Below are positions 1,640 through 53,851 of a DNA stretch of 64,000 nucleotides, piece after piece; position 1 is the first letter of the stretch, and each line of letters starts with the position of its first letter. Under the pieces are notes generated by a model. The model was not told where the DNA came from. It made no database searches and saw nothing but the letters and a program-made list of their open reading frames with translations. Source of the stretch: a virus. Where the stretch lies: the IMG/VR virus record IMGVR_UViG_3300044959_000303, positions 1 through 64,000 of that record. One strand, 5' to 3'. The translations under genes and the position numbers were made by a program.

Positions 1640-4600
1640 TCAGAATAATGGAAAATGAATCAGGAATTCTTCCGGATCATTCATATCGAAATATTTACGA
1701 TAAATCAATCCTCTGGTTTTTATTTTTGTTCCATATGGAAGAATGTTTTTTCTCACGTTCTTTATCTCTTCCAGAATCAGATTGTTGTTTCGATTCGGTT
1801 TCAGGTACATCAATACGAAAGACGGAACGTATCCAAGTGGTACACCATTTGCACTTGTTTGTCCCGAAATCATCCACAAAGGCAGTACTTCTCTTTCATA
1901 ACCTATATCAATTTCCAGATCTTTTCTCAAATTTTTCAAACTGGTCGGAACAATTACGGAAAAACCGGAAATCGAAGTATTGACGATTGCTTTCGCGGAA
2001 GAAGTAAATTTCCTGTTTTCGACATTTTCGTCGATAATTTCGATGTAAACGACTTCGTAACAGATTTCTCCTTTCGAATTTCTTGCTACGGCCTTTTTGA
2101 CATCTCCAAGAATGAATTCCATTTCTCTCCATACGGATTTGAATCCATTCGAAACAGTATTCGTATCGAAACCCAGTGCACTGAGAACAACATCATCGCT
2201 TGGAATTATCGTACCTCTTGCAAGCAATATTTCCTTTTTCGGCTTTATCGGAAAATTGATATCGTAATTTTTCCGAAAACGCAAATTTCGATTCAGATAC
2301 AATGGCAGACTCGAATTGATTGCAGTGAACAGCAATTCTTCCCTGTCGTTACCCTGAAAAGAAAACAACAGGGAAAATTCACTTATCGGATTGTCTACGA
2401 TGTTTTTTGCACTCAATACGAATTTTTTCTCCAGAAATATACCGGGATTGCTTTTCAGATGAACACGGGCGAAAAAAGAATAATTTGTATCAGCGGAAAT
2501 ATAATTCAGTTTTCCAATCAGATATCCGGTTTCGGAATTCAGAAAAATTCCCGGAGGAAGAACACTTCCAGATGCTATCGTATAAAATATTTCCGCTCCC
2601 TCGAAATCGAAGGCTTCGAGTTTCGACAAACAGGGATAAGTTTCATCGATCTGTCCGAGTTTTTCTTCGGACAACCAACCCAGAGTTGTCGAACTTTCGA
2701 ACAGATCACTGATTTCGACGACATTGATCTTGAAAATGTCATTGGTCACATTGTAACCATCGAAAATTTCGATTCGAAATGCATATTCTTTCGTACTTGT
2801 ATCGATATTGACAAGTCCTTGCAGAAATCCATCTCTGGTTACTGTCAGACTGCTCGGAAGACCTACCTTTACATCTGCCGACACGAAAGCCGAAACAGAA
2901 GAAACCACGACTCTGTAAATCAATTCATCGCCATCGGCATCCATGGCAGGTATGTGAAACGAAACATATTGCCCGATAGCAACATCGAGCAGATTGTCCG
3001 GATAAGACGAAACCAGAAAAATTGGCGAAGAATTGTTTGCAGATGTTCTCGTCACTACCGCAGAAAAAGAAGCATCTACATAATGAAAACCATCCGTGAC
3101 CCGAATTACGAAATCATGATTTCTCGAAACATTGCCTACCGATACGAAAAACAGGGAACTCGAAGAAATCGGAAAAGCCGACAATCTTCCTTTCAGAACT
3201 CCATTCGAACTCAAAATCAATCCAGCCGGCAAATTTCCATTTTGCAAACTGAAGGTCAAATTGTCATTTTCCGGATCCGTTACAAGATTGGCAAAAGAAA
3301 AATTCACAACATCATTGTAATTCATCGATGAAACATAAAGATTGACAAAATTGTTCGAATGATTCCAGAAAGGTGGATTGTTGTAATCGAGAACACGAAT
3401 CACGAGAGTTGTGAAAAAATCGATTCCTTGAGAACTTGCCGATATTACGACATTTCTTTCCGTATAACCGATTATATTGCCGGAAGATGAAGAAACGGAT
3501 ACATAGAAAGGATCACCGGATGTAATTTTTTCGACAACACCGACAATTGTTCCATTCGGCAGAAGATGAAGATTCGGAGGAAGTGAATTTCCGGTATTGG
3601 AAACAGAATATGTGAGATTTTGTGTTTGTGTATTTCCAAATCTCAGAAAACCTCGAAGATTGAAATTTATCGCAGAACCTTCGGAAAAATACACAATTGT
3701 TCCGGAAGTTGTCATGTTACCTGTAAAATTTTGAAATTTCGAAAAAAGAATTCTGTTGGAAGAATCACTGAATGGCAAATTTCGAATTCTTCCACGAGTC
3801 GAGAAAGTATCGAGATAAATTCGAAAATCACCTGTAGTTACCGGAAGAGAACTCGAAACACGTTCTTCGGCATACAATGCTGCAATTCCAGTTACGAAAG
3901 CTGCTGCACATGTTGTCGAAGTATTTCTTTTTACAGAATTGCCAATCCATCCGGCCAGTATGTTTTCTCCCGGTGAAAATATATCGGCATTGAAATTCGA
4001 TCCACGATTTCCTACAGGAGAAATCAAGGCATTGGAAGAAGAAATATGATCCGATTCATTGATCGATCCTACGGATATGGTACGAGTCGAATTGGAAGGA
4101 TAATAGAGATTTGCATTCTCGGAAAAATTTCCGGCAGGAGTTATGATTATACATCTGTTTGTCGAATTCAACATCTGTAATTTCGATTCTATTGCCAGAT
4201 TGAAATTTCTCGAAATCAGATTCAACAACACTATCGTGGGAGTGGTTTTGGCATTGTGCCAGTTCACAAGATCATTCAACACATTTTCGGTCAATGAAAA
4301 ATTCATTTCCTGTAAAGTCAGGTGATATATCTTGAATGAATACAATTTTGCCTTTTTTGCAACTCCGAATTCTTTTCCGGCTGCAATCGAAGAAACATGT
4401 GTACCATGTCCGATGTAATCTTTTCCAAATTGTGAAGAAGTCGGATCTATGTAAAGAGGATGTGTGAAATTCAGATATGTTCTGAAATCGGATATATGAA
4501 AAACTCTACCTCGAATATCGTCAATTTCCGAAATTCCGGAATCTACAATGGCAATATCGATATTTTCTCCTTCCAGAGAATATTTGTAAAGTCCATCCAA

Positions 4601-4669
4601 GGGCAAATCGATCTGATCTATTCTATCCAGACCCCAATTTCCGGAAAAATCTATTTTTTGTTTCTTCAT
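1640..4669 (-). CDS. Virion-associated protein: N-terminal proteinase K/aqualysin-like S8 domain (catalytic Ser replaced by Thr) plus tandem Ig/cadherin-like (He_PIG-type) domains
   Basis: S8 motifs are WGLDRIDQ, IAIVDSGI, GHGTHVSSIAAG, PAGN, DIFSPGENI and TSTTCAAAFVTGIAALY. Ig-like repeats follow: LPPNLHLLPNGTI, LPAGLILSSNGVL, DADGDELIY, LPPGIFLNSETG. Confidence 0.8.
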   Translation of the reverse strand: MKKQKIDFSGNWGLDRIDQIDLPLDGLYKYSLEGENIDIAIVDSGISEIDDIRGRVFHISDFRTYLNFTHPLYIDPTSSQFGKDYIGHGTHVSSIAAGKEFGVAKKAKLYSFKIYHLTLQEMNFSLTENVLNDLVNWHNAKTTPTIVLLNLISRNFNLAIESKLQMLNSTNRCIIITPAGNFSENANLYYPSNSTRTISVGSINESDHISSSNALISPVGNRGSNFNADIFSPGENILAGWIGNSVKRNTSTTCAAAFVTGIAALYAEERVSSSLPVTTGDFRIYLDTFSTRGRIRNLPFSDSSNRILFSKFQNFTGNMTTSGTIVYFSEGSAINFNLRGFLRFGNTQTQNLTYSVSNTGNSLPPNLHLLPNGTIVGVVEKITSGDPFYVSVSSSSGNIIGYTERNVVISASSQGIDFFTTLVIRVLDYNNPPFWNHSNNFVNLYVSSMNYNDVVNFSFANLVTDPENDNLTFSLQNGNLPAGLILSSNGVLKGRLSAFPISSSSLFFVSVGNVSRNHDFVIRVTDGFHYVDASFSAVVTRTSANNSSPIFLVSSYPDNLLDVAIGQYVSFHIPAMDADGDELIYRVVVSSVSAFVSADVKVGLPSSLTVTRDGFLQGLVNIDTSTKEYAFRIEIFDGYNVTNDIFKINVVEISDLFESSTTLGWLSEEKLGQIDETYPCLSKLEAFDFEGAEIFYTIASGSVLPPGIFLNSETGYLIGKLNYISADTNYSFFARVHLKSNPGIFLEKKFVLSAKNIVDNPISEFSLLFSFQGNDREELLFTAINSSLPLYLNRNLRFRKNYDINFPIKPKKEILLARGTIIPSDDVVLSALGFDTNTVSNGFKSVWREMEFILGDVKKAVARNSKGEICYEVVYIEIIDENVENRKFTSSAKAIVNTSISGFSVIVPTSLKNLRKDLEIDIGYEREVLPLWMISGQTSANGVPLGYVPSFVLMYLKPNRNNNLILEEIKNVRKNILPYGTKIKTRGLIYRKYFDMNDPEEFLIHFPLF

Positions 4670-4819
4670 GACATTTCGTATTTTTTCCTATTTGAAATAT
4701 TTATTACTCTTTTCCAGTTGAAATTTGAGCACAATACCCCCTTGATTCGCACATATTCAATTATTTTTTCAATTAATTCGAATTATGTTTTCTACAGATG
4801 AGTTCGAAATGAAAACCAT

Positions 4820-5005
4820 CCTTTGCGCAAGGGTTGAATTGCCTCGGAAACCTCGGCAATTCAACCCGTGGAAAAACCACGCTTCGCGACGCTAAGCTGC
4901 TTCGCTGCGCTGCGCAACGCTTAGCTGCTGCGCGTGGTTTTTCCACTTTCCCCTTTTTCTTTTCAACTCAAGAGAACCGCGGCTTCGCTTCGCTTCGCCG
5001 CGGTT
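4820..5005. repeat. Cluster of GC-rich inverted repeats
   Basis: GGGTTGAATTGCC 4831-4843 pairs with GGCAATTCAACCC 4855-4867. GTGGAAAAACCACGC 4868-4882 pairs with GCGTGGTTTTTCCAC 4932-4946. AACCGCGGC-(TTC-GC)2-TTC-GCCGCGGTT lies at 4975-5005. Confidence 0.9.
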
Positions 5006-5050
5006 TTTTTCGAAGAAATAAAGAAAATACAAAGCAGATGAAACAAAAAT

Positions 5051-5317
5051 GAACAAGACGAAATGTAAAGGAATTTGATAAAAGCGAAGCGAAGCGAAGC
5101 TGCGAAGCGAAGCGAAGCTGCGAAGCGAAGCGAAGCTCTTTGAGATACAAGGGAAACGGAGAAAAGGCGAAATGTAGCGAAGCGAAGCGAAAGCGAAGCG
5201 AAGCTACATTTCGCATCGAAGTGTAGCGAGTAAAGCGAAGCTAAGCGAGCGAAGCGAAGCTTAGCAAGCGAAACGAAGCTACACTTCGTCAAGGCGAAGC
5301 CATATTCCGTCTTGTTC
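5051..5317 (+). repeat. GCGAA pentamer array nested in perfect stems
   Basis: (GCGAA)n runs from 5084 to 5300. The outer IR is GAACAAGACG 5051-5060 / CGTCTTGTTC 5308-5317. Inner stems are 5167-5178/5203-5214 (12 bp) and 5217-5227/5278-5288 (11 bp). Confidence 0.9.
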
Positions 5318-5506
5318 GTAAATTACAGGTAAATCTGGTATAATATATCAGAATTGCATCATAATTGACTTGATATGTTGAAATTCAAATCGACTTTCAA
5401 TTTTCTCGAAAAATTTTCGAATAATTCTTGTTTCAAATTGTTTCAATATTTTTTTCTTCATCAAGGCTGTTTCCTGTCTTCAAAATAATATTTCATAATT
5501 TTCAAA

Positions 5507-6095
5507 TAACGCCATCCCCCCCCCCCGGCCGATTTTTCAGAAAAACCTTGTATGCACTTTTCTGAAAAATCGAACCGAGGAGAGAGGAAGGCGTAAATTT
5601 TAACGCCATCGCGTATTGATCTCATTGCCTGGGCGGTCCCCGAATTCCCGGCTTAATCGGTTGTACCGATATGAGATCAGCCCCCCTGACATGAAATATG
5701 TCAAGGACGGTCGCAGAGGGCCGGACGCAGCTTGTCTCTGCTCTTCGGTAGTGTCCATACGCACGAACAACTACCGTGTATTACACCTGTCTATTCGAAT
5801 TGAATAAACAGACATAATACTCCTTTTACCCCCACTGAGTGGGATCCCCTATACGAATCATGAATCTTTCACGATTCGTGGCATATCTGGTAAGAATATG
5901 CCTTTATACAGGCGGCTCGCAGAGGGTCCCTGCTGCGTGGTCACCCCTCCGGTCTTGCTCCTGTCCCCCCGGGTCTGGGGAATTTTTTCGAGTTCCTGAT
6001 AGGAAAGTTACTTTCCTAGCCCTTCCTCGTCCATCTTAGCATGGATAACTGTCTACCCCTCTTTTCGAAGAATAGAACTTGACCCGCTATGTCAC
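5507..6095 (-). ncRNA. Large structured non-coding RNA candidate (~590 nt), family unassigned
   Basis: GC-rich island with no credible ORF and about 12 consecutive helices. Several helices pair fully only on the minus strand through G-U wobbles. Ends are approximate. Confidence 0.7.
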
Positions 6096-6150
6096 GTTTC
6101 ATTTTTCAAGATTCGAAATCTTACAAGATTTTGAATCTTGAAATTTTTTT

Positions 6151-6186
6151 ATTATACTTATACAAATAATAAAAACTTTTTTTCAA
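6151..6186 (-). promoter_or_regulatory. Candidate promoter for the ncRNA
   Basis: The minus strand reads TTGAAA-N18-TATAAG-TATAAT and also contains the late-promoter-like TATAAGTA. A long hairpin at ~6104-6143 lies just downstream. Confidence 0.35.
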
Positions 6187-6301
6187 TTTTGCAAATTAAA
6201 TCAATTTTTCAATCATTCATATGTATTTTTTATTCATATATATTTCTTGCAAAAGTATATTTTGAAATTTTTGAAATTCAATTTTTTTTTTTTTGAATTT
6301 T

Positions 6302-7621
6302 TCACTGATCGTTTTCCTTGATCATGATATCTTTTCTTTCTTCGAAAGCTTTCAAAACTTCCTCGAAAGTCAACTCGTTTTCGACTGTGTCAATTCGACG
6401 GATATTTTTCTTTTCTTCGCTCAGTTTCACATCATAAATGGCACCAACTTTTTCGAAAACTTTTTCAGCTTCTTTTTCTGTAGAGGAAAATCCAAGGAAA
6501 AATTCACCAATTCTGGTAAATTTTCCTGTTTCTGAAAGTCTGTTCAACAGTTTGAAAATAATGGAATTGATCGAACTCATGTTGTCGAGAAAATGTTTTT
6601 CTGTCGTATTTTCTTCATTCTCGCTTTCTTTCATGGAATTTTCGGAAGGAAAATCGACAGATTCTTCAATCGCAACAACATATGCAGGAAAATTTTTCGA
6701 GAAAAAAGCTTCGTTGTAAGAATACAGATCATGTTTGCAATAGTGAATTTGCCAGTTTTTTCTTTCGTTGAGAAAATTCAAATTCGAAATGAAATTCATG
6801 AACATGGCAAATTTGATGTTTTCTTCTTCCTTTGCAAAAGGAGAAAAGAAAGAAGAAAACTCGACTTCGAACTTTCGAAAAGCGTTTTCCAGTTTGTTTC
6901 TTACATTTTCTTCACTCGAATTTTTCGAAGAGTTGAAAAATTTCAAATCTTCATCGAAAAGAAGATTATTGTTTTTGTCGATAAAAATTTCGATTGAAAA
7001 GTTCTCGACCAGAGACCTGTAGATCGAATCCGCGATAACATTACGAACGTAAATATCACTGATTTTCTTTCTTTTGTTCAAATTTTTGTAGATATGAACC
7101 ATATCCAGGTATGCATTTCGATCATTATTGTTCAAATTCAAATACATGTTTTCCAATTCTATAATCGAATTTTCTTTTGCCAGAACAGTATCGAAATCGG
7201 TAATCGAATGTACGATGAAACTTTTCAGAAGTTCATTCGCCTTTTTGTCATCTTCGGAAAATACAATCTCTTCGAATTCCTTGTTTTTCAGTTTCTGAAT
7301 AAAAATGTTTCTGTAAGAATCCAGTAAATTCTTTGCTTTTTCGGTCATGTTCACATCGCTGTCGATCACCATGCTTTCAAGCAAGCTTTCGAGCAAGTTC
7401 AAGTCAATTTCCACGAATTTGAAAAAATGTTTGTCACGATCGCGAAACTGAGCATAATCCCCCTCCATGAGATATGGAGTAAATGGCAATCCCAACATGA
7501 ATGCTTCGAAATCATTGATTTCTTTGAAATTGAATGTTTCTTTGACTTTTTTGATTGTTGCCGTAGAATCTGCTGCAACGATATAAGGTTTACCAGCTTT
7601 TGCAAGATAATAAACAATCAT
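6302..7621 (-). CDS. Hypothetical protein (439 aa), probable early gene
   Basis: Long ORF with an AAGGA RBS and a consensus sigma70 promoter; no recognisable motif. Confidence 0.75.
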   Translation of the reverse strand: MIVYYLAKAGKPYIVAADSTATIKKVKETFNFKEINDFEAFMLGLPFTPYLMEGDYAQFRDRDKHFFKFVEIDLNLLESLLESMVIDSDVNMTEKAKNLLDSYRNIFIQKLKNKEFEEIVFSEDDKKANELLKSFIVHSITDFDTVLAKENSIIELENMYLNLNNNDRNAYLDMVHIYKNLNKRKKISDIYVRNVIADSIYRSLVENFSIEIFIDKNNNLLFDEDLKFFNSSKNSSEENVRNKLENAFRKFEVEFSSFFSPFAKEEENIKFAMFMNFISNLNFLNERKNWQIHYCKHDLYSYNEAFFSKNFPAYVVAIEESVDFPSENSMKESENEENTTEKHFLDNMSSINSIIFKLLNRLSETGKFTRIGEFFLGFSSTEKEAEKVFEKVGAIYDVKLSEEKKNIRRIDTVENELTFEEVLKAFEERKDIMIKENDQ

Positions 7622-21357: not shown

Positions 21358-24300
21358 TTAACTGTTGTAGTTCAGATTATCTTCAATCGGTTTTGTCAAT
21401 TGTAGAATTACAAGATCTTCTTTATCATGAGAATTGTCTTCGTTTTTCCAATTTTTTCTCGTAATGTCGATTACGATATTTGGCAAGAAAATGGCAGAAA
21501 CTTCACTTCCGCTGACCATTATATTTCTTGCTGCCGGAGGAACGAAACCAAATTCTATGTTGTTTCCGTTTACAAGATATGTGTAGTTTTCACTGGCGAG
21601 TGCACTTGTTGTGAAAACTCTTTTCAAAGGAATTTCTCCAACCGGAACTATATTGTAAGAATAATTCGGAATCAATATTGTTGTTGCACTTCCGAACAGA
21701 ATCAAACTGACATTTATATTTACCGAAGATGTGACAAGAGCAGACAAACCGGAAATTGTAAACAAACTGGCAGCACTGTTCGATGTTACGAAAATGCTGG
21801 TTTTTTCTTCGTTTATTCCGCGAGGTGTATGAGACACTCCACGATTTACATCATTCAATTTCCATATTTTGTGACCGCTTGTTTCCATGTGAACTTCTGC
21901 GTTTCGAAATTCTATTTTTTCCGTGCCGATCCAGAGAAAAGAACTGTCTCCTTCCTGTACATTTCCATTGAAAATGATATTCGAATTTCTGAAAGCAGGA
22001 TGTACATGAATGTTTTCTCTCAACAATATCGAAGTTTCTCTTGCGGAAATTGCTTCTTCCAAGGTAAAAATTGTTCTGTTTCTTATTTCCAACGTTTTCT
22101 CTTTTTCCTTGTCACTTTTTACTTTCAATAGTGATGCAGCATCACCTCTTTCAATTCCAGATATGTAGAATACACAGGTTTTTTCGATGTTTTTCTTGTA
22201 AATGATGTTTTGTGTGGATATGACTTCATCCCATTCCGAACTGTCCCAAGAAAATACATCCCACCCATCTTTACTGATGATTTTATTGTAATCTATATGA
22301 GGAGTCTTGATAATTCCATTTTCCGAAACGAATATTCCTCCAATATTTTGAACATTGAAATCGAGTGTATCGAAGTTTCTGGAACCACCATGAAATCTGT
22401 TGACTTTCAAATTCATGATTTCACTGTTGTCCCACCAGAAATATGTCAAAGTCGAACCATGAACATTCATGATTTTCATTTCTCCGCTTACATCGATTAT
22501 ATCATAATCATAGTCTCCGCTTATCAACGTCACTATTTCGATAGTATTTCCGGCAGATATCGATGCCATTGCAGAAATTGTAAACTCTACAACGTTTGCA
22601 GAGTATCCGAGACTCGATACGAACAATGATGAAACAGTATAATCATCATTCAATGTCAGAATCGAACCATTATTGTAAACTCTTATTCCATCAATGCCCG
22701 GGGAAATATCGACCGAACTCGAATATTCTTTTTTGTCAGGCGAAAAAGTGAATCTTTCGACATAAGGAGGACATAACATTTTTCCAGAAGAAAATACCAA
22801 TATCGAATTTACATATGGTCTTCGAGTAAATGCACTGAGAGGAATCGAAACATATACCGGCAAAGAACTCGAATTTATACTCAATTTTTCTCTTCTTGTT
22901 TTTGTAATATCGCTTCCATCGAATATATACAAACTCAGAATGTTTTTGGCACTCGATGTAGCACTCGAATTGAATGTCAGTGTATTTCCAATTATATCGA
23001 TTTGTGCTTCGTAACCATCGACTGTTGCATACAAATTACTTGAAACCGTAATGTTCGAAAAGATAATATCATCCAAATCGATTGTGAAATTTTCCTGATT
23101 GATGTAAAGATGTTTTTCTTTCAATAATGTAGAACCACCACCAGCTTCGAAAATTCTCAAATCGAACTGATATTCGTAATCCGGAAGATTTGCTGGAAGA
23201 AAAGTTACTTTCAGATTTTCGTAATCGAAAATGTAATGAATTCCTTCTTCCAGAAGATTTCCATTTCCAAATATTATCAACGATTCCCGATTGTGAGGAA
23301 CAGCATTCAGTTTTACAGGCAAGCCAGAAAGTTCCGATCTCGAAAAACTGAAACGAAGGCTTGTTATCGGAGGATAACCTTGTTTACCCTTGCCGTAAGC
23401 ACGAATCAATGCAGTGTCGAAAAATGTGACAGGTAAAAGTTCTTCCGGATGATCTTTCGAAATATGTGGTTGAGAGAGAAGACCACCTTCGTATATCGGG
23501 TTGAAAGGTGAACTTACGGTTTGCCATATAATTCCAGAAGTCGTTGTGGAAATTCCAGAAATTTTTACATCATACAACAAATCTATGGAATCTGCACTTA
23601 TTGCAATATCTTCATGTATGTTTGTTACGTTGCTCAATGGATATACATTGAAGCCATAATATTTGTTCCATAATTCGATGAAATTGTCTTGAGTGGAATA
23701 ACTGCTGATATAGGATTCGAGCCACGTGTTTCCTCTTGCATCCATGTAATCTTGAAATACTATTCCATCCGGAGTCATTACAGGTGCAAGATTTTCGACA
23801 AAGAAACTTTCATTCGGTAATGGATTATATATGTGAATCAGAATATTGTCTTGAGTGGCTTGAAAATATTCTGGGCTCAATTCCAATCCACCACCTTCTA
23901 CAATGATTCCCTTGAATGTACAACCAGAAATCAGATCTTCGACGTTTTTCACTGGTGGTGGTATTTCGAGTTTTCTACCGAATATGTTCGATGAAACAAC
24001 CTGATAATAAAGATCGATTCTTTCGGCAGCATTGATCCATCTTTCAATTACGATTCTTGTTCCATTTTCATATATTCGATCCAGAACGACGATGATTTCG
24101 TTCGTGGATATTATTATGTTTATTCTGTTTTTGTCCAATGTTCCATGAGTACCATTTGGTCTGAATATTGAAATTTTTCGAATGTTCGATTTCGACCACA
24201 ATTTTTCTTTACCAAAATCGAATGGATTGTAATTTTCAATAAACGGTTCTGTTGTAACTTCTGTAGTGTTGAAAAGACGAAATGTCGTACTCGAACCGTC

Positions 24301-27300
24301 TGTTTCGAACATGATTTTTTCGGGATGAAAATCTTCGTCACAAGATACTCTGTCGAAACGCAAGGTTGTTTCGAATTTTCGAAGCAGATTCAAATTTGCA
24401 GAAGTTGGAAAAGCAACATTCTGATCGAAATCGTCTATAATCAAATCGAGATTGTCGGTTGGAGGAATCAATGTTTTGGTTATTTGTCTGAATTTACTGT
24501 GATATGGTTTGATTTCTTCCAGATATTCTATGAGAGATTTCACTATATCTGGTCTTACTGTTGTTTCTCTCGTTGCATTTTCGATAATGTTTCCCAATAT
24601 CAGTGTACTCGATTTCACTATCCAAGAAGAATTGTTGTTCGATTCGGTAAGAGCATATCTCAACTGATTGAAAAATATTTCGTTTATGAAAAGTTGTCCG
24701 AGAAGATTTTCATTTCGAAAAACATTCAACAGATGTCGAAGTTCCAATCTTCCATCTCTGAAATCTATTTTTTTCTTCAACAAATCGATATTCGAATTCA
24801 AATCTTCATTTTCGAAAATTCCAAATATGAATCTGTTTTTGTAAAAAGCATCCTTCAATTGTATCGTAGAGTTCTGCTTGGCCAAAGTAATCCAAGAAGT
24901 TCCATTCCATTTTTGCCATTCCCACAAACCGAATCCATTGTCATTCAGAAGAATGACTTCGTTTTCTTCTATGAATCCATTCAACAAGGAGTTGTTTCTC
25001 TCTGAAATCGAATTGAATATTTTTACAGGTATTTTGTTTTTGTCAACTTCTTCCGAATAGAAATCCGATATCTGTATGAAATCATCTGTTCTGTATTTCT
25101 GAATATTCACAAGTTTCCATGAAATTGGATTGATCGAAATCAATTTCCATACGGACCACATGTTCGACAATGCGGGTTCGCTTCGAACAAGAACCGTTTG
25201 TCCGACATTTATCAGATTCGATGTAATCAAAGCATCTCTTTGAGTAAAATTATCGACAACAAAATTGGTATTTTGTGGCTCTTTTTCACTGATGTAGATT
25301 TTCGAAAAATCGATTTCTTCGAGAAAACGAATTTTTTCCAGTTTCCAATTCATGAAATATATCAGATTTCTTACAGCTTCTTCCCGATTTACAAACATGC
25401 TTCTTCTTGGTCTTACCGAAATACCCGTAGAATCATTCAAAGGAAGTTTTGGATCTGGAACTGGTCGATTTAGATAATCGAACCCTGTAAGGCTATCGAT
25501 CATTTTGTTCCACAGAACATTCGAAGGAAGCCAAGAAGATGTATTTTCACGAACAATATACCATTCTTTGTGTGAAATATCTTCTCTTCCCTCATCGTTC
25601 CAAGGAAGAGACAAAAATGTTTCGTTTTTGAGCGAATCATCCAGAGAAATCAACAAGGAATTGTTTCGAAGAGGAGAATACCAATTATGATTTCGGTAAG
25701 AATTTTTCAACAGAGAAGCAAGTTCTTTCGTAGACAATGTTTTCCCGAATGAAACATTCTCGGAATCTGTTACCCAGAAATAATATTTTGTAATTTCGAT
25801 ATTCTTCGTACTATCTTTTTCTTTTGTTATCACGTAAGGTGAATTTTCACCATATAATGGTACACCATCACCATTGTAAGAAGATGGTGGATTGCTCGAT
25901 TCTATCCATTCGGCAATTTCCACCTTCGATTTCGGAGCGAGTTTACCCCAATTTTCTCTGGAATATTCGTCCGATGTAGTTTTGTAATCGAGATATTTCG
26001 CCTTTCTCGTATTGAACCATATTTTTCCGACCTTGTTTTTACTCCATACTGCCGATGATTCTTCCACGACAAAAACACTTTCGTCCCCATTTGTATAAAT
26101 TGCGGGATCGTAACCAATCATGAAATCGACGTTTGTTTTTATTTCTGGAAGAATTTTGTCAGACAACGGATCGTAAACAGGAATCTTTGCAAGAATTGAT
26201 TTTGTATTTCTGTCACGAACTGTCAAACTGTCGAATTTGGACGAATCTACGAATTTGTTTTGAATTCTATGTACAGAATAGATAAATTTTCTTCCGGGAA
26301 GATTCAATGAATTGAAAGACGTTACTTTCATGATTCCATAATATTTCGGCAAGAAGAATTTTTCATTTTCATTTCGAAAATCATCGATAAACAGTAATTT
26401 GTCACTGTAACTTTGATTTTTCGAAATGTAATAGTTTGTCGAAAATTCATTTTCAGCTTCGTAAATATCTTTGAATCTGACTTCTACAAAATTCAATATT
26501 TCGAAACCGTTGATCGTCGACAGAGCACTTGCATCGATAAAATCTCTGAATTCCGGATTTGCTGTCACAATTACATCTTTCAGTCCCTCCATTCTTTTTA
26601 TTTCATATATTCCTTCGAATTCGACGGTGTTTTCTGCTTTTATTACAATAATATCTCCTTCTTTCAATGTTCTGTTTGCCGATGTTCCCAAATTCGTGAC
26701 AAAAGAAATTTTCATTTCATTATCGCCAGAAGAATTGGCAATAAAGGTAAACGACGATACCGCGTTGGTTATTTTCATGCATTCGAAAACAGACCAATCT
26801 TTGTATTTCGAATTTTTCACATCGAATACTTCGTAAATCCACACCCTGTCGCCCAGTTCGAATTCAGAAGGAATTGCTGAAACAAACAATTCTCTTTTAT
26901 CGAAAAACTGATGTTTCACTTCGTTCTTCTGCAAATGACCAGCAAACGAAACAACGAAGTCCGTGTTTCCATGATGTACATTCCACAACCAATGATTTTT
27001 GTTGTAATTTCTATCGAAATCCGAAGGTTTTTCCAGAATTTCATCATCGGCAAACACGATGTTTTCACCAAATGTTCCTATTCGATAGGTAATTGTATTG
27101 TCACTTGGTGAATCGACAAAAATATTGTCAATGACTTCTTTCCAACTGTACAGAACAGAAAAATTACCATTGTTTTTCTTGTACAGAATTCCGGAAGATA
27201 TATCGTAGAAGTAATTTTCCGACAAACTCGAAGGAAATACAGTACCACCGGAAACAATACTTTCAGTTTCTACCAATTTGAATTCGATGATTTGCGGATT

Positions 27301-30300
27301 TTGGCGAAATTCTTTCGAATTCAAGGAAAACACAATTTTTCTATTGTCGTCGACATTTCCATATTCCGAAGCAAACAACATCCATTCTTCCAACATTTCG
27401 ATGTTTGTTATGTTTGTTATGAACTGGCTGCGAAGTATTTTTTCCAGACTTTGTTTCGTACCTTTGGTTTTTATCAATCCTTGATAGAAATTGACCTGTG
27501 ATTTGTCACTTATGAGAAGATTCGAAAGATATGATCTTTTCTGATATCCTATGTTGTGAAAAGCATAATCTTTCCATTGTGATTCCGTGTTCGATGTATC
27601 GTTTATATCGAACAATGATATGAATTGATCGGCCAATTTATCGTAATTTGGCAGAATGATCTTGTCCGGAGTTATTATGAATCCTGCAATTTCGTATCTT
27701 CCGTTCCAGTTTTTCGTAGATATCGTACTTATTCTCAATCTTGGAAGAAATACGCCGAGAATTCCGTTGTTGATCACGTTTCCAAATATCGTATTGTTAT
27801 TGAAAACCAATGCATGTTCTATTGTTTCGATCGAAAGTCTTGCAAAATACAGAAGAGAATTTTCATCTTCTTCGTTTACAGGAATAATTCTGACAATATT
27901 GTCATCTCTCATGATTGCAACATTTTTCGGAGGAATTTTGTTACCAAAACGATTCAATACAGAGTAGAATCCCTTCTGTATCGTTTCCACGGGAGAAACA
28001 AATCCGAAATCTGTGAAAAACTTTATTTCTCTACTCGAAGGACTCAAAGATATCACATCACCTCTCTCGATTCCTGAAATGCACCACAACATGAATTCTC
28101 TTGCCGATTTTACAAAATCGATCAACTCGTTGTTGACTTCATCGTATCTATCGAACACAAAACCTACACTTTTCAGATAATCCTGATACGAAACCAGAAA
28201 ATTCACTACTTCTTCGATTCTTCGAAACTTTGTTCCATAAGGAATTTCTTCTACAATTCCTGTAGTATCCTGAAAAATGGTCGCTGTAATTCTGTATCTT
28301 TTTGGAATTTCACGTATCGAAATCCATTTTGTTGCATCGAAGAAATTATCACTTATGTGAGTTTCTTTTGCTTTGTAAAGTTTTCCCGAGTTTTCGAGAA
28401 CAACTATATCGCCAACAAAATATTGAGTATTTTCAACCCACTTTCGAACATTTTCGTTTTGTTGACCGACACCTATTGTTTTCTTTTTTCCATTTTTGTT
28501 TCTTTGCAATATTTTGAATGTTTTTGCAAAGAAATCATAACCGTTGACAGTATAACCATCTTCAACTTTTTCAATTATGACACCTGAATATACTACTTCT
28601 CGAAAATGCTTCTGATTGTAGAATGTAACTTTTACATTTTCTTTGGGAATCAATCCGAAACTGTCGCTATCGACCCTCAAATTGTTGGTATCCACGAATC
28701 TTCCACAACGATAGGAAAGGTTGGAAACAATATTTCTTGTCTTTTTTCCGAAATTTTCGGTAATATCCTTGAGATCCTTTTCGAGATAGTTGGTAATCCA
28801 TTGTTGCAAACCATAATTCATGATCAAACCGTTGTTCACATTCATTGTATTTTTTACAACAGAGGATATATCAATTTCTTCGATTATCGAAGAAGACTCG
28901 TTGTGTACAACGAGATTTCTGTTTTCTGGTCTGTGTCGATAATTTTCGAGAATGATTTGAACATTTGTTGCATCTGTTCTGTTCTTGAACAACTCTACAA
29001 TATTTTCTGTGTCCCAATTTGTCGATACGAATTTTGCCGGTTTGCAAAGAAACAAAATCAAGGAAAGATCGAAGCTGAAATTTTCACTTTTGTACCAAGC
29101 CGTCTCGATCGTACCAACATCTCCGAATTCGAAAGGTTGGACTGCATCTTGAGGAATTGGATATTGTGAAACTATACCTATCGAAATCGGATCCAGTAAT
29201 TCGCCGGTTGTAGAAACGGGTATGTATTTTTCCAGATCCGGTCTCGAAAATCTCGTATCGATTCCCTGTCTTGGTCCCTGTCTTATACGACCATCTCGAA
29301 GATCTTCCCATAACTTCGCATTTCCAGAAGTATATGGTGGCGGACCATATTCGGAATTCCACCAACTTGGTTTTATCGAAAAACCGAGCATTTCCCAAGG
29401 AAACAGATCAGGACGATCGGTATCGTAATACCAGAGATAAATTCCTCTCCAGTTTCCGGGAATGATTTCTCCATCCTGATCTTTCACTGTGCGATAATTT
29501 ATCGAAAAATTATCGTTTCCTGATGGAATATCTTCGAAAGATATTCCGTTTTCCGATAACCATCGATGAAATATGTTTTTCGATATTTGCAGAAATTCTT
29601 TTCTGCTGTATTCGGTATTTCTCCATTTTCCTTGTCTTATATCATATATCGAATATAGTGGAATATAATCATTTTTGAATTTACTTGGAGCACTTTCGTA
29701 TATTCTTTCTTCGAGGCGAAAAAGAATATTGTCCCGAAAATCTCCAAATGTCGATATTACACTTCCATCGTGTTGTCTCAACAACAGATTCGAGCTTATT
29801 TTGTCATCATTGTAAAATTGTGGTTTGTACAAAGGAGTAATACCGAGAAATGCAGGAGATGCAGGAATATATTTCGGTAACGAATTCGACGCTGTCAAAT
29901 CCACACCAGTGTTCCGGAATGGAAAATCGAAGTTTTTTCCAAAGTTTATTTCACTCAATATGGCATCTATCCAATCATCGGGATTTGTGGAATTGATCAA
30001 ATTCTTTTCCCAGAACTCATTGGTTTTTCTCAAAAATCTGTTTTTGAATCTTATGAATTCTCTTTCTACATATCTCAATGAATCGACAAAAGATGTATCT
30101 TCCTTTGTAAGAAGCATGAGCTTGAGAATTGGCTCGGTATGCTGCAATATTCTTTCACCTTTCCATCTTTCTGCCAAAGTATCCTTGTAATTGTTGATTC
30201 CAAATTCACTTCCCTGAAAACCAATCTGTTTCCTCATGCATTCCATGAAATGAAGAAAAACATCGTCGTAACTTACTTTTTCGACATCGCGATTTTCGGC

Positions 30301-32289
30301 ATTTTTGACCAGAGAAATTGGATTTTCGAAGATCAGATCTTTCTTTTCGACAATTCCACCCGGAAGAATTCGAATATCGACAAAATCCTGTCGATTCAAC
30401 GAACTTGTAAATATTATTCTGTTGTTCGGTGAATCATATGTCCAATCGATTGCATGCTCCTTTTTCACACCATTGACTTTTACTATCAAACTTTCATTGT
30501 AGAATCTTGTGAAGTCTGTCAAAGGTAACAGTGGTTCGACCGGAAGATCGATAACTGTTGTTTCTTTTTCAATGACAATTTTTTCGACAACATATTGTTT
30601 CGATTTTTCTCTTGAAAAATTCCAATTGTTTCCATACTCGGAAAGAAATTCATGAGGACTGTTGATATGCCAGAAATAGTAATAAGGAATTTCCAAAGTT
30701 TCTGTTGTTACGGAATCGATGTAGGTCCATCTTTCCGTATACAGATAATTTTCGAACACGAATTTACCGTTTTCATTGAATACAGGACGTATTCCCAATT
30801 CTCTGTCTCTGGGAGTTGTATTCGTATCATCTATTGCGTAACCGAAAATTCTGCTTCCTGAAAAATTCGAAGAATTGTAGATGGAAATATCGTCGAGTCT
30901 GTTGAGATCCTTGTCGTACAATTGAAATAATGGTGGTTGATTTACTCTCTGTTTGGATTGCCCTCTTTTCCATTCGTTTCCATCGAAAAAGAAGACGTAT
31001 TCGAATCCCAGAGGATCGGTAAATGTGACATAATCGCCTTCATTTGGATAAGGTGTCAGTGGTTCGAGTTGAATGATCTGATTTTCTTCGCTTATTCCAG
31101 TAACTCGATATATTCTGTTGTTTGCTCCCGGCGAAGATGAATTTGCAAAAAGAATGATCATGTTATTGGAAACCTGAAAACTGTTTCCAAAAACATCTTT
31201 TATGATGACATTGCTTATTCCTCTTCCTGCATCCGGCCAGGTTTCGCTGTACAGAATATCACTGACTTCACAAGGAAGATCCACACCACCGTATGGAGGA
31301 ATACCGTATGTGGGAGAAAGATTGTTCAAAATTGAAAACATTTGTGGACAAAATGTCACAACATTTACTTCCATGAGAAAATTGGTTCCATGATTCCACA
31401 ATTCCAGATCTCTTTCGAACATGATAATCGGTCTTTTGGCCTGAATTTTGACCAAATTCGGATCGTTGAAATTTTTGATTACACTTTTGTGAAACCAGCG
31501 ATTTTTTCGACTCCAAGCATTTTTGTCTTTTGCGCCTCTTTCCATTACAAAATAATCGGGAATATTACTTATCTGCAAACTGTTGTCCCACAAATCTTCA
31601 TCCCACGACAAAATATCCCAACCGGCAATTCCAACTTCATCTTCTACGAGAACTATTGCTTTTCCTACGCCTTCAACTATGAAAATTCTGTTGTTGTTTG
31701 CTGGATTGACATCGTTTTTCGGTTGAATCAGCATATGTGATTCGAGTTCCAAAGGTTCGCCGTTTACTGTTATTGTTGCATACGGCAATCCAACAATGGA
31801 ATCCAAATCTGTCAAATCATCGATAACTATAGGTTCTGGCGAAGAAGGTAACCAATAGTAATTTCTGTAATTTACAAATGCATCGAGATTTATTGGTGGT
31901 GACCAACTGTAGAAATTTTCAGAAAAAAGTCTGTTCTGGTCGGTAATTATCGAACCATGATATTCGAGATAATTGAGCAGATCATTGTAATATTGAAGAA
32001 ATTCTACACTATTGGCACTTGTAAATGCGGCAGCATGTGTCAACTGGTGAATTTGTCTTTCCGAATTTCTTTCGTTGATATAAAAATCGGTTTCTTTTCG
32101 ATGATAACTTGGTATGTCTCCTATGTATCCGACAACTTCTTCTGTATCTTGTGGTTGATATAACTGATTTATGGTAGCGTGAAAGAATGACTTCAAAACC
32201 GGAGTTTGAAGCAGAGAAGGAAGAAATTCTACGAGATTTCTTTTTTTCTCGAAGTTTTTCTTGTCCGGATTTATCGGTGTTTCTGCCAT
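21358..32289 (-). CDS. Giant (3643 aa) baseplate wedge-like virion protein
   Basis: Uninterrupted 10.9-kb ORF between gp6-like and connector genes; PPINLDAFVNYRNYYWLP N-terminal motif. Confidence 0.75.
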   Translation of the reverse strand: MAETPINPDKKNFEKKRNLVEFLPSLLQTPVLKSFFHATINQLYQPQDTEEVVGYIGDIPSYHRKETDFYINERNSERQIHQLTHAAAFTSANSVEFLQYYNDLLNYLEYHGSIITDQNRLFSENFYSWSPPINLDAFVNYRNYYWLPSSPEPIVIDDLTDLDSIVGLPYATITVNGEPLELESHMLIQPKNDVNPANNNRIFIVEGVGKAIVLVEDEVGIAGWDILSWDEDLWDNSLQISNIPDYFVMERGAKDKNAWSRKNRWFHKSVIKNFNDPNLVKIQAKRPIIMFERDLELWNHGTNFLMEVNVVTFCPQMFSILNNLSPTYGIPPYGGVDLPCEVSDILYSETWPDAGRGISNVIIKDVFGNSFQVSNNMIILFANSSSPGANNRIYRVTGISEENQIIQLEPLTPYPNEGDYVTFTDPLGFEYVFFFDGNEWKRGQSKQRVNQPPLFQLYDKDLNRLDDISIYNSSNFSGSRIFGYAIDDTNTTPRDRELGIRPVFNENGKFVFENYLYTERWTYIDSVTTETLEIPYYYFWHINSPHEFLSEYGNNWNFSREKSKQYVVEKIVIEKETTVIDLPVEPLLPLTDFTRFYNESLIVKVNGVKKEHAIDWTYDSPNNRIIFTSSLNRQDFVDIRILPGGIVEKKDLIFENPISLVKNAENRDVEKVSYDDVFLHFMECMRKQIGFQGSEFGINNYKDTLAERWKGERILQHTEPILKLMLLTKEDTSFVDSLRYVEREFIRFKNRFLRKTNEFWEKNLINSTNPDDWIDAILSEINFGKNFDFPFRNTGVDLTASNSLPKYIPASPAFLGITPLYKPQFYNDDKISSNLLLRQHDGSVISTFGDFRDNILFRLEERIYESAPSKFKNDYIPLYSIYDIRQGKWRNTEYSRKEFLQISKNIFHRWLSENGISFEDIPSGNDNFSINYRTVKDQDGEIIPGNWRGIYLWYYDTDRPDLFPWEMLGFSIKPSWWNSEYGPPPYTSGNAKLWEDLRDGRIRQGPRQGIDTRFSRPDLEKYIPVSTTGELLDPISIGIVSQYPIPQDAVQPFEFGDVGTIETAWYKSENFSFDLSLILFLCKPAKFVSTNWDTENIVELFKNRTDATNVQIILENYRHRPENRNLVVHNESSSIIEEIDISSVVKNTMNVNNGLIMNYGLQQWITNYLEKDLKDITENFGKKTRNIVSNLSYRCGRFVDTNNLRVDSDSFGLIPKENVKVTFYNQKHFREVVYSGVIIEKVEDGYTVNGYDFFAKTFKILQRNKNGKKKTIGVGQQNENVRKWVENTQYFVGDIVVLENSGKLYKAKETHISDNFFDATKWISIREIPKRYRITATIFQDTTGIVEEIPYGTKFRRIEEVVNFLVSYQDYLKSVGFVFDRYDEVNNELIDFVKSAREFMLWCISGIERGDVISLSPSSREIKFFTDFGFVSPVETIQKGFYSVLNRFGNKIPPKNVAIMRDDNIVRIIPVNEEDENSLLYFARLSIETIEHALVFNNNTIFGNVINNGILGVFLPRLRISTISTKNWNGRYEIAGFIITPDKIILPNYDKLADQFISLFDINDTSNTESQWKDYAFHNIGYQKRSYLSNLLISDKSQVNFYQGLIKTKGTKQSLEKILRSQFITNITNIEMLEEWMLFASEYGNVDDNRKIVFSLNSKEFRQNPQIIEFKLVETESIVSGGTVFPSSLSENYFYDISSGILYKKNNGNFSVLYSWKEVIDNIFVDSPSDNTITYRIGTFGENIVFADDEILEKPSDFDRNYNKNHWLWNVHHGNTDFVVSFAGHLQKNEVKHQFFDKRELFVSAIPSEFELGDRVWIYEVFDVKNSKYKDWSVFECMKITNAVSSFTFIANSSGDNEMKISFVTNLGTSANRTLKEGDIIVIKAENTVEFEGIYEIKRMEGLKDVIVTANPEFRDFIDASALSTINGFEILNFVEVRFKDIYEAENEFSTNYYISKNQSYSDKLLFIDDFRNENEKFFLPKYYGIMKVTSFNSLNLPGRKFIYSVHRIQNKFVDSSKFDSLTVRDRNTKSILAKIPVYDPLSDKILPEIKTNVDFMIGYDPAIYTNGDESVFVVEESSAVWSKNKVGKIWFNTRKAKYLDYKTTSDEYSRENWGKLAPKSKVEIAEWIESSNPPSSYNGDGVPLYGENSPYVITKEKDSTKNIEITKYYFWVTDSENVSFGKTLSTKELASLLKNSYRNHNWYSPLRNNSLLISLDDSLKNETFLSLPWNDEGREDISHKEWYIVRENTSSWLPSNVLWNKMIDSLTGFDYLNRPVPDPKLPLNDSTGISVRPRRSMFVNREEAVRNLIYFMNWKLEKIRFLEEIDFSKIYISEKEPQNTNFVVDNFTQRDALITSNLINVGQTVLVRSEPALSNMWSVWKLISINPISWKLVNIQKYRTDDFIQISDFYSEEVDKNKIPVKIFNSISERNNSLLNGFIEENEVILLNDNGFGLWEWQKWNGTSWITLAKQNSTIQLKDAFYKNRFIFGIFENEDLNSNIDLLKKKIDFRDGRLELRHLLNVFRNENLLGQLFINEIFFNQLRYALTESNNNSSWIVKSSTLILGNIIENATRETTVRPDIVKSLIEYLEEIKPYHSKFRQITKTLIPPTDNLDLIIDDFDQNVAFPTSANLNLLRKFETTLRFDRVSCDEDFHPEKIMFETDGSSTTFRLFNTTEVTTEPFIENYNPFDFGKEKLWSKSNIRKISIFRPNGTHGTLDKNRINIIISTNEIIVVLDRIYENGTRIVIERWINAAERIDLYYQVVSSNIFGRKLEIPPPVKNVEDLISGCTFKGIIVEGGGLELSPEYFQATQDNILIHIYNPLPNESFFVENLAPVMTPDGIVFQDYMDARGNTWLESYISSYSTQDNFIELWNKYYGFNVYPLSNVTNIHEDIAISADSIDLLYDVKISGISTTTSGIIWQTVSSPFNPIYEGGLLSQPHISKDHPEELLPVTFFDTALIRAYGKGKQGYPPITSLRFSFSRSELSGLPVKLNAVPHNRESLIIFGNGNLLEEGIHYIFDYENLKVTFLPANLPDYEYQFDLRIFEAGGGSTLLKEKHLYINQENFTIDLDDIIFSNITVSSNLYATVDGYEAQIDIIGNTLTFNSSATSSAKNILSLYIFDGSDITKTRREKLSINSSSLPVYVSIPLSAFTRRPYVNSILVFSSGKMLCPPYVERFTFSPDKKEYSSSVDISPGIDGIRVYNNGSILTLNDDYTVSSLFVSSLGYSANVVEFTISAMASISAGNTIEIVTLISGDYDYDIIDVSGEMKIMNVHGSTLTYFWWDNSEIMNLKVNRFHGGSRNFDTLDFNVQNIGGIFVSENGIIKTPHIDYNKIISKDGWDVFSWDSSEWDEVISTQNIIYKKNIEKTCVFYISGIERGDAASLLKVKSDKEKEKTLEIRNRTIFTLEEAISARETSILLRENIHVHPAFRNSNIIFNGNVQEGDSSFLWIGTEKIEFRNAEVHMETSGHKIWKLNDVNRGVSHTPRGINEEKTSIFVTSNSAASLFTISGLSALVTSSVNINVSLILFGSATTILIPNYSYNIVPVGEIPLKRVFTTSALASENYTYLVNGNNIEFGFVPPAARNIMVSGSEVSAIFLPNIVIDITRKNWKNEDNSHDKEDLVILQLTKPIEDNLNYNS

Positions 32290-53750: not shown

Positions 53751-53851
53751 AATTGACAATTTTCGTGCAAATTCGAATTATTCGAAAAAAAAGTTCGAAA
53801 ACTGTCGAAAGTCGAAAATAAATATTTTTCGATAACAGGAAAAAAGGTTCC

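Follow-up and report, generated by a model that had tools for sequence, protein, structure and literature searches.

The GCGAA-rich block at positions 4868–5317 of the window (the 64,000 nt analysed here, which are the first 64 kb of the single 107,128-bp virus record IMGVR_UViG_3300044959_000303, of about 28% completeness by CheckV) appears from its sequence to be a dyad-symmetric, structure-forming cassette, built by inverted and tandem duplication of one hairpin type. The island is real, unusual and lineage-specific, and both stems tipped with mini-hairpins and terminators are already known as hairpin signals. We tentatively favour, at well under even confidence, the reading that the block is a dyad pair of convergent terminator or insulator hairpins, at which transcription arriving from either side would be stopped. 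The record carries genes for a T4-type portal, a Gp23 capsid protein and baseplate proteins, and its capsid protein is nearest to those of the Rak2/GAP32/CBB jumbo-phage group (top GenBank match Sinorhizobium phage Phosso, 76%; top IMG/VR match a 543-kb contig, 84%); together these point to a fragment of a T4-like, Rak2/GAP32-type jumbo phage, not of an N4-like one.

The original prediction, made from the letters alone, held that the GCGAA repeats are more than a microsatellite and that their motif changes strand within the block, and both points are borne out. Uninterrupted GCGAA runs never exceed three units, are broken by GCT or held in perfect stems, and lie for the most part at hairpin tips. 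On the plus strand of the record GCGAAGC occurs 18 times, 17 of them within 5084–5300, and GCTTCGC 6 times, 5 of them within 4881–4998. The purine fraction of the same strand changes sharply at a TTCGAA, from 0.37 in 4868–5010 to 0.69 in 5011–5317, and this site is the dyad centre. To its right lie an A+T-rich spacer and a perfect tandem array (Table 1). The array alone folds worse than its shuffled counterparts (z from +1.4 to +4.0) and is hence predicted to be unstructured; it is complementary to the loops of hairpins C and B (92% over 24 nt for 4978–5001 versus 5099–5122), and the loop of hairpin C is in turn 100% complementary to that of hairpin E over 15 nt. A 10-bp inverted repeat, which had been proposed to enclose the block, is indeed there, but its significance does not survive: at least one such repeat at a spacing of 100–400 nt occurs in 67 of 100 one-kb segments of the genome, and therefore this pair alone is not beyond chance.

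The repeats sit symmetrically in perfect stems, as had been claimed, five stems of 9–15 bp having been found. Hairpins B and F are two-tiered, and both carry the inner stem GCTAAGC/GCTTAGC (4891–4897/4919–4925 in B, 5240–5246/5259–5265 in F); the loops of B, as read on the minus strand, are purine-rich and of the GCG(A/C)A type, and the purine loops of F bear GCGAAGC. The loop of hairpin C is TTCGCTTCGCTTC, that is (GCTTC)3 on the plus and (GCGAA)3 on the minus strand. That of hairpin E is exactly GAAGCGAAGCGAAAGCGAAGCGAA (GAA-GC-GAA-GC-GAAA-GC-GAA-GC-GAA), as first described, with a C-GAAA-G apex at which GCGAAAGC is found. Leaving hairpin A aside, the loops measure 13, 24, 49 and 50 nt, which nested GC pairs reduce to apical loops of 3–4 nt.

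Folding with ViennaRNA, using RNA and DNA parameters on both strands and z-scores against shuffles, agrees with the proposed alternation of GC pairs with GAA/GAA loops: hairpins C, E and F are predicted as rods of 2-bp GC helices between 3x3 loops, on both strands and in both models. The z-scores of A, B, C, E and F range from −2.6 to −6.8 across the two strands. As RNA, the predicted energies (plus and minus strand, kcal/mol) are −24.8 and −26.1 for A (z −4.6 and −6.0), −42.8 and −47.3 for B, −27.1 (97% of the ensemble) and −21.6 for E, and −34.6 and −29.4 for F; hairpin C folds at −18.8 kcal/mol, with a nested GC pair within its loop, and E as DNA at −14.7 and −12.5 kcal/mol. Purine-strand folds are consistently more stable than pyrimidine-strand folds, in nearest-neighbour models that omit the measured extra stability of mini-hairpins.

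Table 1. Coordinates of the block and of its surroundings, in window positions
Feature	Position	Stem or partner arm	Strand	Remarks
Subtilase-like gene	1640–4669		−	1,009 aa; subtilase and Ig-like domains; left flank of gap
Late-type box ATAAATA of subtilase-like gene	4698–4704		−	28 nt before the ATG at 4669; left context boundary
Hairpin A	4828–4870	4831–4843/4855–4867		13 bp, perfect; 11-nt loop; without GCGAA units
Hairpin B, two-tier	4868–4946	outer 4868–4882/4932–4946	−	15 bp, perfect
Hairpin C	4975–5010	4975–4983/4997–5005	+	9 bp, perfect, GC-rich
TTCGAA	5008–5013			point at which purine/pyrimidine asymmetry flips, dyad centre (purine profile)
Spacer	5011–5083		+	74% A+T; 78% purine on plus strand (composition)
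Inverted repeat, left arm GAACAAGACG	5051–5060	5308–5317		10 bp
Tandem array of GCGAAGCGAAGCGAAGCT	5084–5137		+	3 copies of 18 bp, 100% identity (repeat search)
Hairpin E	5167–5214	5167–5178/5203–5214	+	12 bp, perfect
Hairpin F, two-tier	5217–5288	outer 5217–5227/5278–5288	+	11 bp, perfect
Mini-hairpin GGCGAAGCC	5293–5301		+	final unit of block (sequence)
Inverted repeat, right arm CGTCTTGTTC	5308–5317	5051–5060		10 bp
TGGTATAAT	5336–5344		+	perfect extended −10 box; points away from block; may be chance
Structured RNA candidate	5507–6095		−	large (fold energy); block lies downstream on that strand
439-aa protein gene	6302–7621		−	without family match; right flank of gap

Two pairs of hairpins are paralogous. 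The outer stems of E and F are paralogous and differ by one compensatory pair (A5172–T5209 in E versus G5221–C5284 in F), and B on the minus strand repeats the two-tier plan and inner stem of F on the plus strand, with outer arms that are unrelated yet equally perfect. The main stems are entirely Watson–Crick, with at most one peripheral G–U pair per predicted fold, against 12% in the neighbouring RNA candidate. The compensation between E and F and the plan shared by B and F could reflect selection, or template switching in quasi-palindromes; on either account, it would seem, the strands must fold in vivo. The lack of G–U pairs fits a constraint at the DNA level or on two strands, or simple youth, better than a constraint on one strand of RNA.

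One argument for termination is the direction in which the tails of the hairpins face. On the pyrimidine strand each of the three free tails that face the centre is rich in T, and no outward-facing tail is: hairpin B is followed on the plus strand by TTTCCCCTTTTTCTTTTC, hairpin E on the minus strand by CTTTTCTC, and the stem of hairpin C runs directly into a T run that extends to 5010, after which the plus strand is A-rich. Hairpin C, with its stem and T run, is by all appearances an intrinsic terminator in shape on the plus strand, and B, together with E on the minus strand, has the T-rich tail expected of one; these tails point to a possible role as terminators at the RNA level, which the original prediction had not considered. 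A conserved hairpin of comparable design is present in three double-stranded-DNA (dsDNA) phage contigs of an unrelated family (L101, 12040–12170; L143, 1000–1135; L137, 390–520), in which the stems covary (CCCTTCGCTTATT/AATAATCGAAGGG versus CCGTTGAATATT/AATATCCAACGG) around an unchanging (GCTTC)3GC loop and are followed, on the gene-sense pyrimidine strand, by a T6 run, and by analogy this family would count for a terminator.

The composition of the transcripts is of the same tenor, the minus-strand RNA from 5166 to 5011 having 28% C, 13% G and 48% U, with 28 YC dinucleotides (Y, pyrimidine), and the plus-strand RNA of 4947–5010 a C/G ratio of 1.8. A polymerase moving towards the centre from either side would make pyrimidine-strand RNA, which would meet long perfect hairpins (B and C on the plus strand, F and E on the minus strand) and then U-rich tails; such centre-ward transcripts, C-rich, G-poor and poorly structured, would resemble Rho-loading sites. 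The GCGAA/GCUUC pentamer loops would have arisen by slippage, and the mini-hairpin potential of the purine strand would be a by-product. Stems, tails, composition, paralogy and position are plain observations; that transcription reaches the hairpins, and that they terminate it, is what we infer from them.

As for position, the block lies inside a gap free of open reading frames (ORFs) at 4670–6301 which, with 1,632 bp and 40% G+C, is both the largest and the most GC-rich of the ORF-free gaps of the record; the genes on both sides are on the minus strand. A late-promoter box of the phage, derived from its own genome, reads (A)ATAAATA, often with TTCGA just before it: ATAAATA lies in sense orientation within 100 nt upstream of genes in 22 of its 38 genome copies, and AATAAATA in 11 of 17. 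Other examples in the window stand at 53818 (+) and 42663 (−). Since such a box precedes its start codon so closely, the subtilase-like gene has a late promoter of its own, with the block upstream of it. On the far side, the RNA candidate folds at −255.4 kcal/mol as the minus strand (z −15.6) and at −202.3 kcal/mol as the plus strand (z −7.3), and therefore minus-strand transcription is expected towards the block. In its 3' hairpin (5594–5507) a G11 run pairs with UCCUCUCUCCU; the candidate had no Rfam match, even at E≤10. The block would then insulate the late subtilase-like gene (promoter 4704) from the minus-strand RNA unit upstream of it, and vice versa. Two plus-strand terminator-like hairpins (5964–5990 and 6104–6150) are antisense to the RNA candidate; together with the TGGTATAAT box, which the promoter scan does not list as it requires a −35 box, they may belong to an antisense transcript, or be there by chance.

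Several observations weigh against termination. (i) The loops of B, C, E and F far exceed the 3–8 nt of classical terminators, so that even hairpin C is missed by a terminator scan which takes only such loops, and the ordinary terminator-like hairpins of this phage have loops of 0–5 nt. (ii) Termination leaves unexplained why every loop complements the most stable purine mini-hairpin motifs, and why a perfect array of 3 x 18 bp stands in the middle. (iii) The promoter scan found no promoter driving plus-strand transcripts into B and C. (iv) The T-richness of the tails cannot be fully separated from the strand asymmetry that marks the block in general. (v) The purine words in the loops, the more stable purine folds and the purine loops of certain microviruses (see below) all favour the purine strand. 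(vi) No sign of conservation was found: the four nearest large relatives by capsid protein (G001–G004) have neither the arrays nor homologues of the flanking genes.

This last point bears on the original prediction too, which had named a search of related genomes as a check; the absence speaks only weakly against it, because the relatives are distant (capsid-protein identity 74–84%, no DNA similarity in the gap). The 543-kb relative G001, taken whole, does not resemble the gap at the DNA level, and its 39 gaps of at least 600 bp are free of 5-nt-periodic arrays. No match was obtained with blastn of the entire gap against GenBank phages, nor with an exact 25-mer over an 18-mer junction in IMG/VR. 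The flanking proteins, searched in IMG/VR, gave no relatives, and for the 439-aa protein a single homologue was found, P0002 (86% identity), which comes from a closer relative and is encoded on a JGI contig of 3,925 nt. Rfam searches, at gathering thresholds and at permissive E-values, returned nothing credible for the block or for the neighbouring RNA candidate (RsaE 24 bits versus a threshold of 79, ylbH 25 versus 50), a tRNA search found none, and a literature search yielded no description of (GCGAA)n arrays in phages.

The loop itself is found elsewhere. We located (GCGAA)3GC in 69 IMG/VR loci, which comprise coding repeats, microvirus hairpins, giant-virus arrays and non-coding arrays of the GCGNA type with a 5-nt period; by tblastx none is related to this phage. 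Perfect stems abutting (GCGAA)3 arrays are enriched (7 observed versus 1.4 expected by permutation), and in minimum-free-energy folds of 68 unrelated arrays at least 10 enclosing pairs were present in 30, versus 23 ± 3 with shuffled flanks. The orientation of the arrays relative to genes is mixed, with no general link among the loci, nor is there any link between the arrays and ATAAATA boxes across the 69. Three complete microviruses of 4.3–4.6 kb (L117, L136 and L144) each carry one stem-capped (GCGAA)3GC loop on the capsid-gene strand, and therefore on the packaged strand. A tailed-phage contig with a 1.5-kb non-coding start (L155, 80–480) carries 5-nt-periodic AGCGN arrays (GCGAAGC, GCGTAGC, GCGGAGC), AT-rich stems with GCGAAGC caps, and a direct repeat of about 115 nt, both copies of which end in AATAAATAG. 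A viral contig of 60% GC (L116, 11277–11400 and 12585–12980) also contains strand-asymmetric arrays of great length, in which GCNNC recurs dozens of times at a strict 5-nt period. That unrelated phages, the three complete microviruses included, have the same 17-nt loop at the tips of hairpins suggests a reusable structural module, which would recur across loci but would form no single family.

The same data may be read with no function at all: a hairpin with a slippage-prone pentamer loop would have been duplicated both in tandem and in inverted orientation, and its arms kept perfect by quasi-palindrome template switching, leaving functionless, fast-evolving repeats. With 100% identity among the 18-mers and near-identity between the stems of E and F, these events would be very recent; the record has no second such locus, the relatives have none, and the flanking genes are likewise unconserved; and the enclosure of other arrays by stems is modest, with gene orientation mixed. 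We nevertheless consider this rather unlikely, given five separate perfect stems, two of which (B and F) are alike in two-tier design while their outer arms are unrelated, the compensatory change between E and F, the sharp dyad organisation, and the placement in one large GC-rich non-coding island beside a structured RNA. The block is, furthermore, full of GC and GCG words which the genome otherwise avoids (GC odds 0.67, and GCGC shunned too), and is thus compositionally foreign. Word bias is extreme over the whole record: TTCGAA has 470 sites, 13 times the number predicted from base composition, TCGA contains 34% of all CpG, and the odds of CG and TA are 1.45 and 0.44, which suggests modification, restriction or mutational pressure. 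The first 6 kb of the window (a tail-fibre-like ORF, the subtilase-like ORF and the gap) have 39–42% G+C, versus 29–37% for most of it, and may be a more recently acquired module; 60–62 kb likewise reaches 43%.

The main rival places the function in single-stranded DNA (ssDNA), most attractively as a site of priming or a bidirectional origin of replication. Once the A+T-rich centre (5011–5083) had opened, the purine strand of either side would serve as lagging-strand template, or would be displaced by an R-loop, and it would fold into stems with GC/GAA rods that resist single-stranded-DNA-binding protein (SSB) and mark where primase or helicase loads, the 18-bp repeats being iterons. The geometry is right, since the purine strand runs 5' to 3' away from the centre on both sides, as the lagging-strand template of a central origin does, and a 74% A+T spacer stands beside three perfect direct repeats. 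Stems that are all Watson–Crick fit a constraint at the DNA level or on two strands, the purine-strand folds are consistently the more stable, and in three complete microviruses it is the packaged strand that bears the stem-capped (GCGAA)3 loops. The loop words of the block are those of the most stable DNA mini-hairpins known: GCGNAGC and GCGNNAGC form such hairpins at the G4 primase origin and at ssiA of RSF1010, GCGNAGC hairpins occur at the primase origins of G4, St-1 and alpha3 and bind SSB poorly, and the promoter hairpins of N4 have GGA/GAA loops (PMC13037366), so that the background given with the original prediction was correct. Hits to these words number 17 for GCGAAGC on the plus strand (5084–5300) and 5 on the minus strand (4881–4998), with GCGAAAGC at the apex of E. 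In T4, oriF and oriG combine a promoter with an A+T-rich unwinding element and an R-loop that exposes the non-template strand, and oriE has 12-nt direct repeats (PMC3016281).

Against such a signal, the 73-bp A+T-rich element is present but no promoter or MotA-type box was found at the centre, either by eye or in the promoter scan, and over 4700–5330 the scan found no sigma-70-like site and inspection by eye no convincing Mot box. The block is away from the main switch of gene orientation and skew in the window (about 42–43 kb), has no adjacent replication gene (no initiator gene was recognised near the three 18-bp repeats and their A+T-rich spacer), has been seen as a single copy in a fragment of 28% of a genome, and is absent from G001–G004, all of them distant. 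Extrusion of a cruciform from duplex DNA is unlikely because the loops are of 13–50 nt. On balance we consider a role in ssDNA rather unlikely. The fuller version, drawn by analogy, seems quite unlikely: the block would be the bidirectional origin or primosome-loading site of a T4-like jumbo phage, with SSB-excluding rods of GC and sheared GAA capped by GCGAAGC or GCGAAAGC. Its centre would be opened by an R-loop or an iteron-binding protein, and microviruses would use the same device on their packaged strand. The architecture and the strand switch of the original prediction are real, and its cruciform or single-stranded signal for replication, packaging or transcription is a putative function, the ssDNA role having some support from the all-Watson–Crick stems and the microvirus loops.

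A third possibility reverses the direction of transcription, so that purine-strand RNAs would leave the centre with GAAGC repeats single-stranded and in GNRA- or GNA-type loops, as a platform or sponge for a protein. The sense strands of this phage are purine-rich and the right half of the block is 69–80% purine on the plus strand, E has its C-GAAA-G apex and a purine-strand fold that dominates the RNA ensemble, and the 10-bp inverted repeat could close an RNA of about 270 nt. In a variant, which we judge equally improbable, a small RNA would come from the plus strand of the left half, with A, B, a CU-rich linker and C as its terminator; 4826–5011 is indeed laid out like one, two hairpins being followed by an unpaired CU-rich linker and a terminator. 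The GCUUC loops of this RNA would pair with the GAAGC repeats of the right-half RNA, the loop of C being complementary to the loop of E and to the array. However, no promoter was identified for either RNA. In the spacer, comparison with the late promoters by eye places a near-match, AATAAAGA, at 5017–5024, but it misses the conserved T of the late motif. No terminator follows F, the inverted repeat is insignificant, the Rfam matches are far under threshold, and the lack of G–U pairs argues against a purely RNA constraint, so that we think the purine-RNA explanation improbable.

Lastly, the repeats might act in duplex form, as iterons for a phage regulator between the outward-facing promoters at 4704 (−) and 5336 (+, TGGTATAAT). 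Three perfect 18-bp direct repeats and many 5-bp GCGAA units, set between two diverging promoter-like boxes, would suit this, and in L155 the 5-nt-periodic AGCGN arrays twice end directly in AATAAATAG boxes. A period of 18 bp or of 5 bp does not match helical phasing, though; binding sites have no need of long stems, arrays and ATAAATA boxes are not linked across the 69 loci, and no candidate regulator gene was identified, all of which makes iterons highly improbable. Three other candidates were discarded: a retron or diversity-generating retroelement, as the record has no reverse transcriptase; coding sequence, as the minus-strand ORFs over this stretch would encode ASLRF repeats and, by eye, lack a ribosome-binding site; and a miniature inverted-repeat transposable element, as there is neither a second copy nor a target duplication.

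To our knowledge, almost nothing has been mapped of the origins or the non-coding control regions in jumbo phages of the Rak2/GAP32 type. The locus is compact and natural, and would allow a test of whether a dsDNA virus uses purine mini-hairpins and GAA/GAA internal loops in vivo; the choice that it poses is whether they would serve at the DNA level, in priming or fork handling, or at the RNA level, in termination. Were it an origin, a type of signal known from ssDNA phages and plasmids would be extended to a large dsDNA virus; were it only a two-way terminator or a set of drifting repeats, its value would be the modest one of an annotation note, and a warning that clusters of GCGAAGC alone do not mark origins.

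Comparison with known systems shows likenesses and differences in each case: (i) The promoter hairpins of the N4 virion RNA polymerase (vRNAP) share with the block their C-GNA-G triloops, but they have a stem of 5–7 bp and a single 3-nt loop and need the N4 vRNAP, whereas in the block the triloops are closed by two GC pairs inside larger loops of 13–50 nt on stems of 9–15 bp. The T7/N4-type RNA polymerase domain PF00940 was not found in the 107 kb, which is weak evidence because the fragment is about 28% of a genome and the search control was likewise silent. For the 3,643-aa virion protein the match is to phrog_10938, a structural protein, with none to a Pfam domain or a polymerase family; its ORF (21358–32289, −) adjoins a baseplate wedge gene and a VgrG-like spike gene. 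With a T4-like phage, a differing geometry and a structural protein, the link to N4 promoters made in the original prediction finds no support. (ii) Intrinsic terminators, and the stem-loops of T4-like phages known as PeSLs, resemble the block in perfect GC-rich stems with T runs, in an intergenic plastic region and near a promoter (PMC2839356, PMC4122927). Terminators, however, have loops of 3–8 nt, and the block has pentamer repeats in loops of 13–50 nt and two-tier stems; PeSLs lie beside promoters in plastic regions of T4-like genomes (PMC4122927), as a dispersed family of a stem-loop plus a sigma-70-like early promoter, and the block is a single locus in 107 kb without a −35/−10 pair. (iii) T4 origins likewise set an A+T-rich element beside direct repeats, with a local switch in strand composition, and belong to a T4-like replisome lineage; the block differs in having no identified middle or early promoter and in lying off the global transcription switch, and the T4 origins described have no hairpins. 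(iv) The gut microviruses L117, L136 and L144 have the identical 17-nt loop (GCGAA)3GC under a longer stem, with the purine version on the packaged, coding strand; they are ssDNA phages with one hairpin per genome and no relation in sequence or genes to this phage. (v) In the primase origins of G4, St-1 and alpha3 and in ssiA of RSF1010, as in the block, longer stems are tipped with exactly the words GCGAAGC and GCGAAAGC, in purine loops that are strand-specific. In RSF1010 ssiA and ssiB are on opposite strands of oriV, and the two sets of the block are similarly on opposite strands around an A+T-rich centre. Those signals act on truly single-stranded genomes or intermediates and have one mini-hairpin each, whereas the block belongs to a dsDNA jumbo phage and stacks about 22 units as GC pairs between GAA/GAA loops.

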